Shown: positions 1 to 6,926 of the stretch, one piece after another
Layout of the letters: the number at the start of each line of letters is the position of its first letter
Numbering within the stretch: position 1 is the first letter of the stretch
The notes under the pieces: model-generated
What the model was told of the DNA's origin: nothing
Seen by the model: only the letters and a program-made list of their open reading frames with translations
Databases searched by the model: none
Made by a program: the position numbers and the translations under genes
Virus record (IMG/VR): IMGVR_UViG_2648501390_000002
Coordinates: 1 to 6,926 of that record
Source: a virus
Lineage: Duplodnaviria > Heunggongvirae > Uroviricota > Caudoviricetes
Length of the DNA: 6,926 bases
Reading direction: 5' to 3' (one strand)

Positions 1-129
1 GAGCAAGTAATAGAAATAAAGAAATCAAAGGGAGTTAATCAAAGAGAGCTTGCTAAAAAATACTGTGTCAGTCAGACGGTGATTCACAATATCCAGTCTG
101 GTAAATCGTGGAGGCATGTTAATGGCTGA
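1..129 (+). CDS. 3' end of an upstream gene (5' end outside window); the last 42 aa contain a helix-turn-helix-like segment
   Basis: Frame 1 is open from base 1 to TGA at 127-129 and translates [42 protein letters not shown]. The segment [21 protein letters not shown] has the spacing of a classic HTH (Gly turn, hydrophobic recognition helix). Its stop overlaps the start of the next gene (ATG 122), implying translational coupling. Only 42 aa are visible, so the fold assignment is tentative. Confidence 0.45.
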
Positions 130-1075
130 TTCGAATCTCAATGAGCCAGTAATCATTCAGGCTACGCGGCTCGATACATCAATCCTTCCACGCAATATCT
201 TCTCGCAGTCGTATCTGCTTTACGTTATCGCACAGGGTACTGATGTTGGTAACGTGGCTAACAAAGCCAACGAGGCCGGACAGGGCGCTTATGATGCACA
301 GGTCAGGAACGATGAGCAGGATGTCACCCTTGCAGACCATGAATCCAGAATTGAAGCAGCTGAAGCAACTCTCATCAATCATGAGCATAGAATTGCAGCA
401 GCGGAAAGCACTCTTGCAGATCATGAAACAAGGATTACGGCTGCTGAAACAGAGCTGGCTGATCACGAGACGAGAATTGCTGCCAATGAATCTGAGTTAG
501 CAAACCATGATGCGCGCATAACTCAGAATACAACCGATATCGACGCACTTGATACCAGGCTCACAGCGGCAGAGGGAAGTATTTCGACGCTACAAAGCAC
601 AGTTGGTGATCACTCAACAAGAATATCTGCGCTTGAGTATGCCACCACGCGCAAGAAATCAGAGGTTGTTTACTCAGGGGTATCTGTAACCATCCCGACA
701 GCGCCGACTAACCTTGTTAGCCTGCTGAAAACGCTCACGCCGTCATCCGGAACGTTGGCACCATTCTTCGACACCGTTAACAACAAGATGGTTGTGTTCA
801 ACGAGAACAAAACCCTGTTCTTCAAGCTGTCGATTGTCGGGACGTGGCCCAGTGGAACCGCCAACAGGTCAATGCAGCTAACCTTTTCCGGCTCTGTTCC
901 TGACACACTGGTAAGCAGTCGCAACTCGGCGACAACGACCGATAACATCCTGTTAGCTACGTTCTTCAGCGTGGATAAAGACGGCTTTCTTGCCACAAAT
1001 GGCAGCACGTTAACCATTCAGTCGAATGGTGCGTCGTTTACTGCCACAACCATCAAGATAATCGCGGAGCAGTAA
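122..1075 (+). CDS. Tail needle / cell-envelope-penetrating fiber (P22 gp26-like) with an extra C-terminal knob-like domain
   Basis: ORF-track ORF 116-1075. I prefer ATG 122 because GGAGG at 110-114 sits 7 nt upstream of it but only 1 nt upstream of ATG 116. The N-terminus [43 protein letters not shown] closely matches my recollection of the P22 gp26 N-terminus (from memory, not searched). The centre is five 14-aa coiled-coil repeats (ADHExRIxAAExxL). The protein is 317 aa versus about 233 aa for P22 gp26, and the extra about 150 C-terminal residues are beta-rich (S/T/N/G), as in knob-bearing needles of Sf6-type phages. Confidence 0.85.
332..541 (+). repeat. Five imperfect 42-bp tandem repeats inside the needle gene, encoding 14-residue coiled-coil units
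   Basis: Units at 332-373, 374-415, 416-457, 458-499 and a degenerate one at 500-541 encode [14 protein letters not shown] / [14 protein letters not shown] / [14 protein letters not shown] / [14 protein letters not shown] / [14 protein letters not shown]. Read directly from the sequence. Confidence 0.8.
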
Positions 1076-1530
1076 TGATTCAGTTCAAACCAACGCGAAA
1101 CATCGACCTGATAGAAGCCGTGGGAAATCACCCCGACATTATCACCGGGAGCAACAACGGTGATGGATACGACTACAAGCCTGAATGCCGTTACTTCGAG
1201 GTGAACGTGCACGGTCAGTTTGGCGGCATTGTTTACTATCAGGAGATTCAGCCGCTGACATTCGATTGCCACGCCATGTACCTGCCAGAGGTTCGTGGAT
1301 TCAGCAAGGAAATCGGGCTGGCGTTCTGGCGATACATTCTGACTAACACCACTGTTCAGTGTGTCACATCGTTCGCTGCACGCAAATTCCGCCACGGGCA
1401 GATGTACTGCGCAATGATTGGCCTTAAGCGTGTCGGAACCATCAAGAAATACTTTAAAGGCGTGGATGACGTGACTTTTTACAGCGCCACACGCGAAGAA
1501 CTAATCGACTTCCTGAATCACGGGAGATAG
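1075..1530 (+). CDS. Gene 14-like protein (position and size match P22 gene 14, associated with ejection-protein function/assembly)
   Basis: 151-aa ORF. Its ATG at 1075-1077 shares a base with the TAA stop of the needle gene (TAATG), and GGAG lies 5 nt upstream. The assignment rests on synteny (needle-14-7-20-16 order) and size; I do not recognise the sequence itself. Confidence 0.6.
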   Translation: MIQFKPTRNIDLIEAVGNHPDIITGSNNGDGYDYKPECRYFEVNVHGQFGGIVYYQEIQPLTFDCHAMYLPEVRGFSKEIGLAFWRYILTNTTVQCVTSFAARKFRHGQMYCAMIGLKRVGTIKKYFKGVDDVTFYSATREELIDFLNHGR

Positions 1531-1532
1531 CC

Positions 1533-2228
1533 ATGTTATATGCATTTAAGCTGGGCAGAAAACTGCGCGGCGAGGAACCTTATTGCCCTGAAAAAGGCGG
1601 GAAAGGTGGCTCCGATAAAAGTGCAAAGTATGCCGCAGAAGCTCAGAAGTATGCCGCAGACCTGCAAAATCAGCAGTTCAACACCATCATGAATAACCTG
1701 AAGCCGTTTACTCCTCTGGCTGAGAAGTATGTCGGTAGCCTCGAGAACTTATCGTCTCTGGAGGGGCAAGGTCAGGCACTTAACCAGTATTACAACTCTC
1801 AGCAGTATAAAGACCTTGCAGGTCAGGCTCGCTATCAGAGTCTGGCGGCAGCGGAAGCAACAGGTGGATTGGGTTCCACCTCAACCAGTAATCAGTTAGC
1901 AACAATCGCACCAACGCTTGGTCAGCAATGGCTATCTGGACAAATGAACAACTACCAGAATCTGGCAAATATTGGTCTTGGCGCGCTTCAGGGACAGGCA
2001 AACGCCGGGCAGACATATGCCAACAACATGAGCCAGATTTCACAGCAAAGCGCAGCACTGGCGGCGGCAAACGCTAACAGACCTTCCGGCCTTCAATCTG
2101 CAATAGGCGGGGCTGCCTCTGGAGCAATTGCTGGAGCACAGCTTGGCAGCATTGTTCCCGGTATTGGTACTGGTATTGGTGCCGCTGTTGGCGGCGGTCT
2201 TGGTCTTCTTGGTTCACTACTTTATTAA
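1533..2228 (+). CDS. Ejection (E) protein, P22 gp7-like
   Basis: 231 aa (P22 gp7 is about 229 aa, from memory). It starts 2 nt after the gene 14 stop. It has a basic N-terminal segment (MLYAFKLGRKLRGEEP...), a Gln/Ala/Asn-rich middle, and a Gly/Ala/Ile-rich hydrophobic C-terminus (GGAASGAIAGAQLGSIVPGIGTGIGAAVGGGLGLLGSLLY) suited to membrane insertion. Confidence 0.7.
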   Translation: MLYAFKLGRKLRGEEPYCPEKGGKGGSDKSAKYAAEAQKYAADLQNQQFNTIMNNLKPFTPLAEKYVGSLENLSSLEGQGQALNQYYNSQQYKDLAGQARYQSLAAAEATGGLGSTSTSNQLATIAPTLGQQWLSGQMNNYQNLANIGLGALQGQANAGQTYANNMSQISQQSAALAAANANRPSGLQSAIGGAASGAIAGAQLGSIVPGIGTGIGAAVGGGLGLLGSLLY

Positions 2229-2238
2229 GGGGTAATCA

Positions 2239-3582
2239 ATGGCTACGTGGCAACAGGGTATTAATTCTGGTGGTTTTCTGGCTGGCATCGGTGCGCAAAA
2301 TGAGAATGCGCCAAAGGCAAGCGACATTAACGCAACGCTTGGTCTGATCCGCGAAAACAATGAACTGGCTCGCTCAGGTGCAAATAACGTTGGTCTGACC
2401 GCGTTACGTGGTCTGGCTGGAGTTGCTGATATTTATAAGCAGCAGCAACAGCAGGAACGTAAAGCGGCATTCCAGAAAGGTTATGCAGATGCTTATGCGT
2501 CCGGCGACAGGGAGCAGATGCGTAATCTTATTACAGCATTCCCTGAAGAGTTTGAGGAAGTCCGTAAAGGCATGGGGTATGTCGATGATGCCCAGCGGGA
2601 TGATTTTGGCAATCTGGCGCTCAAGGCTCAGGTAGCTTCGTCGCTTGGTCCGGGCGCATTTGGCAGGTTCATGATGGATAACGAAAAGGAGATGCGTCGT
2701 TTAGGTATCCCTCCAGAAACTATTGCGGAAATGCAGGTTAATGACCCGCAGGGCTTCCAGCACTTCACAGGTAATCTGGCACTATTTTCTCTCGGTCATG
2801 AGAAGTATTTCGATATCAAAGATCGAATGGAGGGGCGTCGACTTGAGCAAGGGCGATTGGATGAAAGCATCCGTCAGGCTGACATGGAGAATGCGAGAGG
2901 ATGGGCAAATATCCAAAATGCTCAACTAGACAGGGCTCAGCGGGCACAAATGCACTCAGATGAGATGGGATTGAAGCTAATGGAGCTGGGGCAAAAAGGT
3001 AAGCCGTCAGCAGACTTAATTAAGGGATTAAATTCTGACATTACCAATTTTGGCAAAAATTATAACTCTGTCAGAGCGGCGGCAAACTCTCTGCAAGCCC
3101 TTAGCAAGGTAAATACTGGCGCTGCCCAACTTGGGATTATCTTTAATTACATGAAGTCTCTCGACCCTCAGTCAGTTGTTCGCGAAGGTGAACAGGTTCA
3201 GGTCATGCGCTCTGATGGCATATGGGGGCAGATAAAAGGATATGTAGACCAGCTTAATGCAGGGAATGGCTTGTCACAGGAAGCGAGGGATAACATTGTC
3301 AACGCAGCAAAAATTAACGCCAACGCTATGGGGCAGCAGTTTAACCAGCAGGTAGACGAATATCTGGATACGTATGGAGATACTATTCCTCAGGGGCTGA
3401 AAAAAAGTTTAGGGAGAAGGAAGGCCAAGCTATTTGACGATGTCCCAGCGCAGCCTACACCACAAGGTGGTAATGGGCAGACAAAAGCTGCGCCAAGTGG
3501 GATATCAGAAGGCGCGACGGCAACGAACCCTAAAACTGGTCAGAAACTCATTTATAGGAACGGACAATGGCAACCGATGTAG
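2239..3582 (+). CDS. Ejection (E) protein, P22 gp20-like
   Basis: 447 aa (P22 gp20 is about 471 aa, from memory). AAGGGG lies upstream of ATG 2239. It is third in the conserved 7-20-16 order, Gln-rich and predicted largely helical, and overlaps the next gene by 16 nt. Confidence 0.7.
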   Translation: MATWQQGINSGGFLAGIGAQNENAPKASDINATLGLIRENNELARSGANNVGLTALRGLAGVADIYKQQQQQERKAAFQKGYADAYASGDREQMRNLITAFPEEFEEVRKGMGYVDDAQRDDFGNLALKAQVASSLGPGAFGRFMMDNEKEMRRLGIPPETIAEMQVNDPQGFQHFTGNLALFSLGHEKYFDIKDRMEGRRLEQGRLDESIRQADMENARGWANIQNAQLDRAQRAQMHSDEMGLKLMELGQKGKPSADLIKGLNSDITNFGKNYNSVRAAANSLQALSKVNTGAAQLGIIFNYMKSLDPQSVVREGEQVQVMRSDGIWGQIKGYVDQLNAGNGLSQEARDNIVNAAKINANAMGQQFNQQVDEYLDTYGDTIPQGLKKSLGRRKAKLFDDVPAQPTPQGGNGQTKAAPSGISEGATATNPKTGQKLIYRNGQWQPM

Positions 3583-5690
3583 GTTTACCCGAAGGCTTTG
3601 TTCTCGATAATCAGCCTGATAACTCACAGCTTCCTGATGGCTTTGTGCTTGATTCCCAACCAGAACAGCAGCAATCTCCTTTGGTTTCACCAGAGGAAAA
3701 TTCCAGACAGGAAAATGTTGTTAATAATGCTAACGGTTTCGACCGTTTTATGTATGGCGTTCTCAGTGGATTGATGGATGTTGGTAAAGGTGTTGGCCTG
3801 TTTCAGGACATGACACCAGAAGAGCAAGCCGCAATTCAGTCTCTACAGCAGAAGTTAGCGGCAAAACCATCAACCGCACAAGATGTTGGTGAGTTCGTTG
3901 GACAAGCAGCACCATTTGTTAGTGGTGGTGGGATTATTTCTCAGGTTCCGAAAGGGGCGGCAAGGCTGGCTGCCGCCGCAGGGCTTGGTGCTGGAGAAGG
4001 GGCTATTGTAGCCAATGGAACAAATAGCGATGTTGCTTCCGGCGCTGCTATTGGCGCTGTGGCTGGCCCTGTAGCCGAGATTGTTGGTCCAGCGCTTGGG
4101 AAGATTGCAGGAAAAATTAAAAATAGTGCCGGAGATATTTATCGCTCATCCGTAGGGATGGGTAGTAAATCATCTAAAGCAACGTTAAAGAAAGCTGCTG
4201 GCGCAATGGATAATAAATTTATTGGTGGGCAACGAGCTATTCAAGATTTCGCCGATGAAGTTAATCCTGATTTTAACGCGATAAATGCTATTCGTGAGCT
4301 AGAACTGGAAAATTATGCCACTCCAGGCATGATCTCTAATAATCCTGCTGTCAGGGCTCTTGATAATGCAGTGGCAAGTCTCCCTGGAACAGAGATTAGT
4401 GAGGCGCATAAGCGTTTTATTACTGAATTAGGAAGAAAAGCTGATGAAATGATAACTTCATTTGGGGGAAACCTTGATAAGCAACTGGTTTCTGACAGGC
4501 TTGCAGATAATTTTGATAAAACCATTTCATCATTACAAAATCAGTCAGATAACATCTACAACAAAATTGCCGAAAAGGTACCTGTAAGAGACCGGATTGA
4601 GGCAACTAATACATTGAATTTTTTAGAGGATTTTGCTGATGACATAGGTGGAATTGATGAATTATCTCCAATAATGAAGCGGACATTGAACCGACTTGAT
4701 CCAAACACCTTGCCAACGTATGGGCGTTTAGATCTCGCTAGAAAGCAGGTTGGACAAGCTATTGGCAAAGGCTCTGGCCCATTCAAGGATGAAGAAACAG
4801 GTGTTCTTAAAAAGTTATATGCAGCCATAACAGATGACCAACAGGCTGTCGCAGAAAAATATGGCGCAGGGGAATTATGGACGCTTGGTAAGGAGTTGGT
4901 AAAAAAACGAAAATCCATTGAAGATGATGCTGTAACCGTCTTGGGTAGAAAACTTCAGCAATCAGCAATTCCAAAAGTTGAAAGTGCCGTTGTTAATATG
5001 GCAAAAGGAAACGGTGGTGACTTTAGGCAATTAATGAAGTCAATTCCAAAGGATATGCGGCAGGAAGTTGCGCTCACCTCAATGAATAAAGCATTTACCA
5101 GCTATGCCAAATCACCTGGTCAGCAATTAGGAGTTGATGGATTTGTAAAATGGTATAACGGAATGTCACGCAATGGGGCCAATATGAAGGCTCTCCGTGA
5201 TGCTATTGGCACAGATGCATCAAAGCGCCTTGATACGATTTATCAAGCAGCTAAGGCTATGAATAGACTCAATACTGGTAAGCAGTATGCTAGTAGCCTT
5301 GTGGATCAGCAAGTTAATAACTTTCTGAAAGAAAAGGGTAGTCTCGCAAAAATTTATGGAATAGCCTCAAAAGCTGCTGCGGCGGAAGGTATTACAAGCT
5401 TATCTGGTCTTCCTGGTGTAGGTGCAACAGGGGTGATAACGTCAGCATTGATGTCAGGGAAAACAAGCAGGATAAAGGCTGCTGATGCCCTACTGTCTTC
5501 TCCTGAGTTTAAATCAATGCTATTTCGCCTGCAAAACGCACCAGTAGACAGAGCAGAAGTGAGACGCGTAATAGAAAGGAAACTGATGCAATCTGGGGCA
5601 TTTAAGAGATGGGAGAAAACCTTATCAACAGATGAAGCAAAAACCATTGCCCGCACGGGGATTATTACATGGCTCGCTAGTGACAGTTAG
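3567..5690 (+). CDS. Ejection (E) protein, P22 gp16-like, with an N-terminal tandem peptide repeat and a compositionally distinct distal part
   Basis: 707 aa (P22 gp16 is about 609 aa, from memory). AGGAA lies 7 nt upstream of ATG 3567, and the start overlaps the gp20-like stop. It is the last gene of the co-directional block and has a Gly/Ala-rich segment (aa about 110-180). Confidence 0.7.
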   Translation: MATDVGLPEGFVLDNQPDNSQLPDGFVLDSQPEQQQSPLVSPEENSRQENVVNNANGFDRFMYGVLSGLMDVGKGVGLFQDMTPEEQAAIQSLQQKLAAKPSTAQDVGEFVGQAAPFVSGGGIISQVPKGAARLAAAAGLGAGEGAIVANGTNSDVASGAAIGAVAGPVAEIVGPALGKIAGKIKNSAGDIYRSSVGMGSKSSKATLKKAAGAMDNKFIGGQRAIQDFADEVNPDFNAINAIRELELENYATPGMISNNPAVRALDNAVASLPGTEISEAHKRFITELGRKADEMITSFGGNLDKQLVSDRLADNFDKTISSLQNQSDNIYNKIAEKVPVRDRIEATNTLNFLEDFADDIGGIDELSPIMKRTLNRLDPNTLPTYGRLDLARKQVGQAIGKGSGPFKDEETGVLKKLYAAITDDQQAVAEKYGAGELWTLGKELVKKRKSIEDDAVTVLGRKLQQSAIPKVESAVVNMAKGNGGDFRQLMKSIPKDMRQEVALTSMNKAFTSYAKSPGQQLGVDGFVKWYNGMSRNGANMKALRDAIGTDASKRLDTIYQAAKAMNRLNTGKQYASSLVDQQVNNFLKEKGSLAKIYGIASKAAAAEGITSLSGLPGVGATGVITSALMSGKTSRIKAADALLSSPEFKSMLFRLQNAPVDRAEVRRVIERKLMQSGAFKRWEKTLSTDEAKTIARTGIITWLASDS
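3585..3674 (+). repeat. Two 45-bp tandem repeats encoding LPEGFVLDNQPDNSQ / LPDGFVLDSQPEQQQ at the N-terminus of the gp16-like protein
   Basis: Direct read: 3585-3629 and 3630-3674 encode near-identical 15-aa units with the core LP[ED]GFVLD[NS]QP. Confidence 0.75.
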
Positions 5691-5914
5691 TCAACTTTGG
5701 TTATTTTGCCTTCTTTTTCTTGATGAACTTTGCATCCATCATCTTTTGATAGCCAAACTAAAAACTTTAAAACCTTAAACACAAGTAAGGCTACTGCAAT
5801 GAAAGCACCAATCGCAATTATTGCTAGCGAAATTATTTGCATTGGTGCTTTTAATGCAGGGAAAATAGTGTAAATGATCGCGAAAACAGTAATTATGAGG
5901 AACCATCGCTTCAC
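5687..5914 (-). CDS. Small inner-membrane protein (75 aa, two predicted TM helices, charged C-terminal tail); candidate superinfection-exclusion or membrane-acting accessory protein
   Basis: The ORF track gives 5687-5989 (100 aa from ATG 5989), but that ATG has no Shine-Dalgarno sequence. An in-frame GTG at 5914-5912 is preceded by a perfect AAGGAGG (complement of 5920-5926) with a 5-nt spacer. The product is VKRWFLIITVFAIIYTIFPALKAPMQIISLAIIAIGAFIAVALLVFKVLKFLVWLSKDDGCKVHQEKEGKITKVD: two hydrophobic stretches of about 18-23 aa, then a Lys/Asp/Glu-rich tail. Its stop (complement of 5687-5689) overlaps the gene 16 stop (5688-5690). Confidence 0.55.
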   Translation of the reverse strand: MKRWFLIITVFAIIYTIFPALKAPMQIISLAIIAIGAFIAVALLVFKVLKFLVWLSKDDGCKVHQEKEGKITKVD

Positions 5915-5978
5915 ACCAACCTCCTTAGTTTTGTGCAGGATACCAGATGATAATGTGTAGTTGGAGTAGCGCGGTTGT

Positions 5979-6070
5979 AATGCAAGCATTTTGTTTTGGT
6001 TTTATGCTTGCTTGTATGTGTGTACAGTGCATATAATGCAAGCATACATCACAATAAAGGTGCTTGCATT
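5979..6070. promoter_or_regulatory. Divergent control region with four copies of a near-palindromic operator-like motif (consensus AATGCWWGCATT)
   Basis: O1 at 5979-5990 is AATGCAAGCATT (perfect 5-bp inverted arms around AA). O2 at 6003-6014 is TATGCTTGCTTG (core ATGCTTGC). O3 at 6035-6046 is AATGCAAGCATA. O4 at 6059-6070 is GGTGCTTGCATT and abuts ATG 6071. Centre-to-centre spacings are about 23, 33 and 24 bp, with alternating AA/TT centres. Confidence 0.5.
6008..6037 (+). promoter_or_regulatory. Putative sigma70-type promoter for the rightward gene (-35 TTGCTT, 18-bp spacer, -10 TATAAT)
   Basis: TTGCTT at 6008-6013 and a consensus TATAAT at 6032-6037. O2 overlaps the -35 and O3 overlaps the -10/+1 region. 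AAAGG at 6055-6059 is a plausible RBS for ATG 6071. Not experimentally supported. Confidence 0.4.
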
Positions 6071-6926
6071 ATGACTGAAAAGAAAAGTGGCGAAGGGAAA
6101 GCTAAGGGCGGTATCGCTCGCGCAAAGTCGCTGACTAAAGAGCAGCGTTCTGAAATAGCAAAGAAAGCAGCGGCTGCAAGATGGAAGGATAAACCATTAA
6201 TTGCTACGCATAAGGGATCGTTCCAGCATGAATTCGGGATTGATGTTGAGTGCTATGTGTTAAATGATGATAACAAAACTGCCGTTATTAGCCAGAGAGG
6301 CATGGGAGAAGCGATTGGTCTTGGCGAAGGTGGCAGCAGGTTGCCAAAGTTTATTCAGGGGAAAACTATTTCTCAGTATATCGGGCATGAATTAAGGGCA
6401 AAACTTGAAAATCCTCTTATTTTTCAATACAAACAGGCGGGCACGAACACTCCAGCTAATCCTGTAATACATGGCTACGATGTAACAATATTAATTGATT
6501 TATGTCGAGCAATCTCTAATGCTAAAGCTGAAGGTAAGTTGCTTTCCAGTCAGGAAGGGATTGCTAAGCAAGCCAGAATCATTATTGATGCATCAGCCAA
6601 GGCGGGCATTCAGGGGCTTGTTTATGCTTTGGCAGGGTATGACAGAACAAAAGAAGAGGTAATTCAAGCATATAAGCGATATGTTGCTGAAGAGGCTCGT
6701 GAGTATGAAAGAGAGTTCACCCCTGAACTTTATGAGCATTGGTATCGTCTGTATGGTATAGACAAACCAGTTAGAGGGCGACCATGGGCGTTTAAATATC
6801 TTACGATAGATCACATTTATTACCCATTAGCCAGAAGTGAAGGAAAGGTATTTAATTTAGCAAAAACGTCAAAAGAAGAAAAAGGCAGCAAAAACGATAA
6901 AATACACCAGTTTTTATCAGAGGTTG
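6071..6926 (+). CDS. 5' part of a gene for a phage regulatory-type protein (P63C-domain / antirepressor-like family; 3' end outside window)
   Basis: Frame 2 is open from ATG 6071 to the window end (285 codons). It is missing from the ORF track, presumably because it has no stop in the window. The N-terminus MTEKKSGEGKAKGGIARAKSLTKEQRSEIAKKAAAARWKDK carries the basic motif GGxARAxxLTxEQRxEIAxKAAxARW, which I associate from memory with P63C-domain proteins that accompany Bro-N/KilA-N/Ant-type antirepressor domains. It is preceded by the operator/promoter region. Confidence 0.7.
   Translation, partial: MTEKKSGEGKAKGGIARAKSLTKEQRSEIAKKAAAARWKDKPLIATHKGSFQHEFGIDVECYVLNDDNKTAVISQRGMGEAIGLGEGGSRLPKFIQGKTISQYIGHELRAKLENPLIFQYKQAGTNTPANPVIHGYDVTILIDLCRAISNAKAEGKLLSSQEGIAKQARIIIDASAKAGIQGLVYALAGYDRTKEEVIQAYKRYVAEEAREYEREFTPELYEHWYRLYGIDKPVRGRPWAFKYLTIDHIYYPLARSEGKVFNLAKTSKEEKGSKNDKIHQFLSEV

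Follow-up and report, generated by a model that had tools for sequence, protein, structure and literature searches.

A conserved array of four 10-bp palindromes as the putative operator region of a probably autoregulated P63C-domain prophage gene

The stretch of viral DNA analysed here (the window; 6,926 nucleotides, positions 1 to 6,926 of IMG/VR record IMGVR_UViG_2648501390_000002) covers the late/immI end of an E. coli prophage of the P22-like (Lederbergvirus) kind. It raises the question of what an array of four small palindromes in front of a P63C-domain gene is for, and which protein reads it. An earlier note on this DNA had taken the array for cooperative repressor sites in a divergent promoter region and had named the downstream P63C-like protein as one of several possible binders. 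At a probability of roughly 65%, we favor the reading that the four sites (O1 to O4; Table 1) are operators of a self-contained, autoregulated prophage accessory ("moron") cassette and that they are bound by the cassette's own P63C product.

Table 1. Coordinates of the features discussed, numbered from the first base of the window
Feature	Coordinates	Strand	Remarks
Sf6-type tail needle gene	116-1075		First complete ORF; knob domain PF16532, 8.5e-109
gp14-like DUF2824 protein	1075-1530		
Ejection protein gp7	1533-2228		
Ejection protein gp20	2239-3582		
gp16-position protein	3567-5690		
75-aa predicted membrane protein, sieA position	5687-5914	-	phrog_7294; GTG start, RBS AAGGAGG at 5920-5926
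Mosaic module (leftward 5' UTR, array and first 39 codons)	5912-6186	.	Inherited as a unit, 96-99% identity
Putative operator O1	5980-5989	.	ATGCAAGCAT, perfect 10-bp palindrome except for the central AA; about 48 bp 5' of the -10
Putative operator O2	6004-6013	.	ATGCTTGCTT, 1 mismatch; TTGCTT within it is the -35 hexamer
Putative -35 of the P63C gene promoter	6008-6013	+	TTGCTT, read from the sequence
Putative -10	6032-6037	+	TATAAT; shares its final two bases with the start of O3; TG at 6028-6029
Putative operator O3	6036-6045	.	ATGCAAGCAT, perfect; overlaps the -10 and the predicted transcription start
Shine-Dalgarno-like element of the P63C gene	6056-6060	+	AAAGG, read from the sequence
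Putative operator O4	6060-6069	.	GTGCTTGCAT, 1 mismatch; overlaps the Shine-Dalgarno element and ends one base 5' of the ATG
P63C-domain gene	6071-6926	+	phrog_2384, annotated 'unknown function'; runs off the window
N-terminal motif	6104-6184	+	Codons 12-38, KGGIARAKSLTKEQRSEIAKKAAAARW; proposed DNA-binding element

The helix-turn-helix protein that had been placed at the window start, also as a possible binder, was not found from position 116 on (bases 1-115 lie outside this range), and the first complete ORF there is the tail needle gene, whose product carries about six copies of a heptad-like repeat, ADHETRIxAAE, ahead of its Sf6-type knob domain. At the other end of the window, the order of genes can be read from the closest complete relatives, in which mnt, arc, ant, and the tailspike gene come after the P63C gene. 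The prophage of strain MS 21-1, the nearest one in E. coli, carries an unusual immI passenger at this place: a gene for a ClpP-like protease subunit lies directly 3' of the Mnt-position Arc-family gene (L002 10205-10741), between the P63C gene and arc/ant, and is apparently cotranscribed with the Arc-family gene. The record of the complete related phage vB_EcoP-611R6 (L003, ON470589.1), entered as a 'complete genome', contains host genes at 1-4300 and 44800-45921, and since these genes (sucrose operon, tRNA-Arg, and yfdC) stand at both ends, the record is a prophage region with its flanks.

The leftward 75-aa protein on the other side of the array is a neighbor and not demonstrably a part of the operator system. 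The 34 bp at 5912-5945 (L004 2501-2534) hold the leftward gene's RBS and 5' UTR. They agree in every base with the P22 sieA 5' region, just ahead of the annotated PsieA, and the coding cassette behind them is swapped among relatives, encoding 75 aa here and 109-, 134-, 154-, and other-sized proteins elsewhere. Exchange of this cassette while the UTR and the array stay fixed places the recombination joint at the start codon.

The P63C protein is 330 aa long in E. coli MS 21-1 and 322 to 330 aa long in the closest complete relatives. The window protein matches phrog_2384 (4.5e-103) and, at residues 202-289, the Pfam P63C domain (PF10546; 1.2e-8, 35.9 bits against a cut-off of 26.1 bits), and it is thereby a member of the family named for the C-terminal domain of Myxococcus phage Mx8 p63. 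PF10546 covers those residues only, and both the N-terminal motif discussed below and the array fall outside any described family. No hit to the protein came from PADLOC, NCBIfam, or PDB, and fold comparison gave no match either.

The four motifs lie within 92 bp, as the earlier note had described, and the central dinucleotides alternate in the order AA, TT, AA, TT. The note had seen them as 12-bp dyads, and four dyads are indeed present; the conserved unit, however, is the 10-mer ATGCWWGCAT (0, 1, 0, and 1 mismatches at 5980, 6004, 6036, and 6060) and not the 12-mer, whose copies at 5979, 6003, 6035, and 6059 differ from AATGCWWGCATT by 0, 3, 1, and 2 mismatches, respectively. Of the spacing of two and three helical turns that had been proposed, the three-turn interval holds for the middle pair but the two-turn interval does not hold for the outer pairs, the centers being 24, 32, and 24 bp apart, or about 2.3, 3.0, and 2.3 turns. 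The whole region (5978-6071) forms an imperfect palindrome with 34-nt arms, and a perfect 12-bp inverted repeat pairs 6033-6044 with 6061-6072.

That this cluster might be a chance or compositional artifact of an AT-rich intergenic region has practically no probability left. The count of 12-mer matches with up to two mismatches in the whole window (4 observed against 2.5 expected) is not significant by itself and would by that measure allow such a reading, but none of 2000 first-order Markov simulations of the window gave such a cluster, a 92-bp stretch holding at most two hits with up to one mismatch where four are observed, and the array is kept in more than 150 loci, which has already refuted this explanation. 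The four-palindrome array is genuine, and chance is excluded. Two further one-mismatch 10-mers, ATGAAAGCAT and ATTCAAGCAT, occur at 2861-2870 and 6662-6671, both within coding regions, and fit the chance expectation of about 1.3 per window. The earlier note had also proposed a search for further copies of the motif in the genome; in vB_EcoP-611R6, the motif is found only at the array locus, with no other copy in 45.9 kb.

The overlap of the array with a rightward -35 and -10 and its abutment on the ATG were likewise borne out at the level of consensus matches. TTGCTT and TATAAT are separated by an 18-bp spacer, with the ATG at 6071, which agrees at consensus level with a sigma-70 promoter (16 to 19 bp between hexamers) overlapped by operators, and from this geometry transcription is predicted to start at about 6044. 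A generic promoter and terminator scan did not report the P63C promoter, because its -35 agrees at only 3 of 6 positions, and found no terminator. On the minus strand, no convincing leftward promoter could be recognized by eye, TTGCAT-19 bp-TACACA being a poor match. A divergent promoter region, as the earlier note had it, is not needed, since most relatives have no divergent gene at the array.

That the sites are functional units is indicated by their conservation. Homologues of the downstream protein were taken from viral contigs at 32 to 100% identity, and in nearly all of them three to four exact TGC(AA/TT)GC cores lie shortly before the gene, with order and distances unchanged. In about 48 nonredundant relatives, a number whose apparent independence, like that of the other counts given here, is inflated by kinship among the sequences, the spacers cannot be aligned from AT-rich enterics to high-GC hosts while the four 10-mers stay unchanged as ATGCAAGCAT or ATGCTTGCAT blocks in the order AA, TT, AA, TT. 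Information content was calculated for 65 arrays with pairwise spacer identities below 60%; each of the ten positions carries about 1 to 2 bits and the flanks about 0 bits, and the 3' A and T, which were outside the search pattern, score 1.0 to 2.0 bits and thus confirm the dyad symmetry. The identical 10-mer is found in Proteobacteria, Acidobacteriota, Myxococcota, Firmicutes, and other metagenome-assembled genomes (MAGs).

The same 65 arrays tie the sites to the promoter. The distance between O2 and O3 is held at 30 to 33 bp (mode, 31), which gives a -35/-10 spacer of 16 to 19 bp (mode, 17). The family consensus of O2 is ATGCTTGCAT, in which TTGCAT serves as the -35, and a TAnnAT element is conserved immediately 5' of and overlapping site 3, with 0.8 to 1.1 bits at the T and A positions. 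The start codon forms the final three letters of ...TGCTTGCATG in 32 of the 65 diverged relatives and lies within 1 to 4 nt in most others. In a minority architecture with ttgacATGCTTGCAT (L020, L023, L077, L093, and L110), site 2 falls within the promoter spacer; overlap of the sites with the core promoter is nonetheless kept. The distances from O1 to O2 and from O3 to O4, by comparison, range from 20 to 26 bp. The proposal of cooperative repressor sites survives in part: discrete 10-bp blocks kept amid diverged spacers behave like protein-binding operators over a promoter, but a variation of up to 6 bp in the outer spacings argues against rigid face-of-the-helix cooperativity within the outer pairs.

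To which gene the array belongs can be asked from the DNA side. A scan of IMG/VR with the pattern ATGCAAGCA-N10-20-TGCTTGCAT, in which no protein information was used, returned at least 120 loci; among the matches listed, 98 of 120 adjoin a gene with the N-terminal motif, and most of the remaining 22 have the two seeded cores only or are cut off at the locus end. At one locus (L107), a main-type pair stands more than 1 kb away from a truncated family gene. When the neighbors of 44 divergent loci were clustered, the P63C gene was the sole gene common to all. A CI-like HTH-S24 repressor gene and a terminator lie directly upstream of the cassette in 18 of these loci, and further contexts include immI (as in the window), the interval between the lambda-type tail genes K and I, and places beside lysis genes. 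The four sites, unchanged in order and spacing, stand before P63C homologues in dozens of unrelated genomic contexts in several phyla. The array belongs to the rightward P63C gene, and its linkage is exclusive to this family. These varied contexts, with only the P63C gene in common, are those of a mobile accessory ("moron") gene that brings its own promoter along.

Within the P63C protein, the part that goes with the sites is a segment of about 30 aa near the N terminus (consensus KGGxARAxxL(S/T)xxxRxxIAKKAAxARW in the alignment), which has no Pfam model and is predicted to form two helices at residues 11-20 and 23-37. A set of 80 species genomes, among them Proteobacteria, Acidobacteriota, Myxococcota, Verrucomicrobia, Chloroflexi, and Firmicutes MAGs, was chosen with an alignment query restricted to the protein body of a closer subset of homologues. 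The motif is present in 75 of the 80, and 58 of these 75 have at least two exact cores within 270 nt upstream, whereas none of the 5 genomes without the motif has exact cores upstream; a viral member (L027) that lacks both motif and sites makes a sixth such case. Most, not all, of the 17 motif-bearing genomes without exact cores have variant operators.

These variants change together with the protein. An acidobacterial N-terminal subtype, AAKxLSxLGAxKGGEARA...QARWxKAGK, lacks ATGCWWGCAT and has instead the operator TATACTTGCYCGGGCA ... CTCGGGCAAGTATA (full form TACTTGC-N4-GCAAGTA) around a TTGACT -35. A DNA-only metagenome scan for the variant operator pair gave 55 loci, in 48 of which a motif-bearing gene comes next, and the corresponding scan of viral contigs found no loci. 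Among distinct N termini, all 56 behind a main operator are of the main type, all 32 behind a variant operator are of the variant type, and both subtypes of the protein body are found in each operator/N-terminus class. A 54-aa protein that consists of the motif only (L294) stands behind a variant operator-promoter layout. The variant layout was also seen before a transposase-like ORF (L298), and three variant operators precede an unrelated ORF at L302. In the acidobacterial L226, both half-sites are changed in concert to TACGTGC-N4-GCACG, and the motif carries the substitutions GGAARA and ESARKAVQ; judged from the sequence, L226 may be a third specificity subtype. Variants such as L208, with the operator ATGCTTGC-N3-GCAAGCAT, suggest that the elementary half-site may be GCAAGCAT, arranged differently between the subtypes.

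Recombination among E. coli prophages draws the same boundary. In these prophages, the array is shared, the N-terminal 35 aa are identical, and the remaining protein is only 53 to 54% identical; the genes on either side of the mosaic module (Table 1) are exchanged among relatives, and the DNA homology of the window to vB_EcoP-611R6 is confined to 5912-6186 and stops at codon 39. The sites are thus coinherited with, and specific to, the segment of the protein that is proposed to bind DNA. Presence and absence, subtype covariation, and mosaic boundaries together suggest that the first approximately 40 residues probably read the sites, and co-occurrence, covariation, and these boundaries strongly favor the P63C protein among the binders that the earlier note had considered. 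The KGGxARA...ARW motif is also found in thousands of stand-alone proteins of 55 to 80 aa, in one to three tandem copies, many of which bear the JGI label 'general stress protein YciG', which looks like a misannotation; no ATGCWWGCAT was present upstream of two such stand-alone genes, one of them at two contig locations, and the motif may thus not recognize this sequence in every protein.

Our results lead us to negative autoregulation as the simplest model of the cassette. With its -35 in O2 and its -10 overlapping O3, the P63C promoter would be embedded in the array, and O4 would lie over the beginning of the transcript (approximately its first 25 nt), with the ribosome-binding site and the start codon in it. 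The P63C protein would bind ATGCWWGCAT, presumably as dimers, through its N-terminal two-helix motif, and dimers at O2 and O3 would occlude the -35 and the -10/+1 region and keep RNA polymerase off the promoter, while O4 (about +17 to +26) and O1 might add affinity or allow a higher-order assembly. If occupied operators block RNA polymerase in this way, the level of the gene product would be low and self-limiting wherever the cassette lands in a prophage, and the landing site here would be a P22-type immI, between the gene at the sieA position and mnt. Physical binding, repression as the sign of the regulation, and the oligomeric state and stoichiometry of the bound protein are what we infer here. 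The tolerance of 20 to 26 bp in the outer spacings is not fully accounted for by this model, and the strict alternation of AA and TT is not explained by symmetric dimers on symmetric sites.

This alternation is exactly what maintains complementarity between adjacent sites, and it is therefore one of the points that speak for a different explanation, in which the palindromes act mainly as nucleic acid structure that silences or terminates expression at the RNA level, either as an O3/O4 hairpin hiding the Shine-Dalgarno element and ATG in read-through RNA of the late operon or as a long O1-O4 hairpin or DNA cruciform. The O3/O4 hairpin has a predicted energy of -16.4 kcal/mol (z, -4.5) and the region 5975-6078 one of -43.4 kcal/mol (z, -5.4), in most relatives O4 reaches into or borders on the start codon, and hairpins tolerate the variable loops of 20 to 26 bp. 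However, every arm is a palindrome in its own right and, free of compensatory changes, stays the same from phylum to phylum; neither property is required of a hairpin. With the promoter inside the array, the gene's own transcript should lack O1 to O3, and the leader expected from 6044 shows no structure (z, +0.65). Complementarity between the spacers 1-2 and 3-4 shows no excess within loci over that between loci (-1.89 versus -2.12 kcal/mol), and the native arrays showed no advantage in folding over spacer-shuffled ones (35 of 65). We therefore consider a mainly structural role very unlikely, while a secondary role of the O3/O4 hairpin, hiding the start codon in read-through late transcripts, is possible. 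No Rfam family matched the region; subthreshold hits to plant and animal miRNA precursor models in window 5971-6079 (at most 30 bits against the 79 to 119 required) arise because of the long imperfect palindrome and are an artifact that any long hairpin would produce. Similarly low is the probability we give to the sites being operators for another regulator, either phage encoded (CI/Cro, Mnt, or Arc) or a host protein; under such control, the cassette would be expressed according to the lysis-lysogeny state or the physiology of the host. The CI-like repressor gene directly upstream in 18 of 44 loci, and mnt and arc just downstream in the relatives of the window, would be at hand for such a role, but no neighboring gene other than the P63C gene is common to all 44 loci, ATGCWWGCAT is absent from the OR/OL (CI/Cro) and mnt-arc regions of the complete related phage, and no single host factor would be expected to span the many phyla in which the same 10-mer occurs. 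Moreover, where the adjacent protein has the other N-terminal subtype, the operator type is different as well. To our knowledge, and as judged by eye, none of the boxes of Fur, LexA, CRP, sigma-54, or PurR and other LacI-family regulators fits the 10-mer or is conserved in the relatives.

A further explanation keeps the P63C protein as the binder and regards the array chiefly as a DNA target or 'self' mark for the main activity of this protein, with promoter control as a side effect; the array could then act by titration or self-immunity, or as a nucleation site. The model for the former is the abortive-infection protein BstA, whose cognate DNA element, aba, also reaches from upstream of its gene into the first codons and acts as DNA (Owen et al. 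2021, PMC8585504). The P63C family is found at classic prophage defense and accessory positions (after cI, in immI, and among late genes), and four sites exceed what simple autoregulation needs. The likeness to BstA extends to the gene, which is also a prophage accessory gene encoding about 310 to 330 aa, has its own promoter, and often lies directly downstream of cI. On the other hand, aba is a single 63-bp sequence whereas the window has four palindromes, BstA has no KGG...ARW N terminus, the P63C protein has no hit in PADLOC or NCBIfam, and the precise alignment of the sites to the -35, -10, and ATG across phyla is most simply understood as control of transcription. Homology to BstA itself (PF26567 in its C-terminal part, KilA-N-like in its N-terminal part) was rejected: hhalign gave probabilities below 1% in both single-sequence and profile-profile comparisons (0.7% in the latter), and PADLOC gave no hit. 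A short local resemblance between the two proteins, VLNDxxT...RG...G, is at best a candidate similarity, and BstA serves here as a functional analogy only. A primary function as a self mark thus seems distinctly unlikely to us.

Among known regulatory systems, P22 immI, with its Mnt and Arc ribbon-helix-helix (RHH) repressors, the operators Omnt and Oarc, and the overlapping promoters Pant and Pmnt, was the analogy drawn in the earlier note, and it turns out to be one of position only. The array lies in the same neighborhood, from the ejection genes and sieA to the tailspike gene, and both systems have small palindromic operators over promoter hexamers. The P22 operators ATGATAGAAGCACTCTACTAT and AGGTCCACGGTGGACCT, however, show no similarity to ATGCWWGCAT, and the array does not lie between divergent mnt and arc-ant genes; the relatives of the window have their own mnt and arc farther downstream, beyond the P63C gene, with a different set of inverted repeats, and the array accompanies the P63C gene to loci outside immI that have no mnt or arc. 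The binder proposed here is the N terminus of a 330-aa protein, in contrast to the RHH proteins of about 50 to 80 aa in P22.

Operator arrays over autoregulated promoters are a classic design. The lambda and P22 CI repressors at OR/PRM and the operators of antitoxins likewise place several copies of a palindrome over the regulator's own -35, -10, and +1, with regulator and operator inherited together as a specificity module. The P63C protein differs from these regulators in having no HTH, RHH, or AbrB domain, the reader apparently being the two-helix motif of about 30 aa, and its operator is near invariant across phyla, with two or three subtypes, rather than diversified into immunity types. 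What is new here is the operator sequence, its near invariance across phyla, the cochanged second subtype, and the small N-terminal motif as the likely reader. Literature searches on 'P63C domain' and the motif strings returned incidental or irrelevant mentions only, and among them none of the operator, the subtype pair, the N-terminal reader, or regulation of P63C genes.

Prophages of Proteobacteria, Acidobacteriota, Myxococcota, and other phyla commonly carry P63C-domain genes (phrog_2384), which occupy positions that are usual for defense or exclusion genes expressed in lysogeny. One may speculate on a wider picture, which we regard as rather unlikely in its entirety: the N-terminal motif would be an unrecognized minimal DNA-binding module, found also in the stand-alone proteins, P63C proteins would be cross-phylum prophage defense or exclusion effectors tethered to the array, and the array would be both an operator and a copy-number-sensitive 'self' element that, like aba, disarms the effector when the prophage replicates.

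Our findings give the P63C family a promoter, a precise 10-bp operator, ATGCWWGCAT, and a candidate DNA-reading segment of about 30 residues that has no domain model, and they are a first regulatory handle on a widespread and uncharacterized family of prophage genes. The operator is also a simple DNA signature by which these cassettes can be found and oriented in metagenomes. A near-invariant regulator-operator pair that spans phyla, together with a second, cochanged subtype, is a compact natural system for the study of protein-DNA specificity, and such a pair is a possible source of small orthogonal repressor parts.
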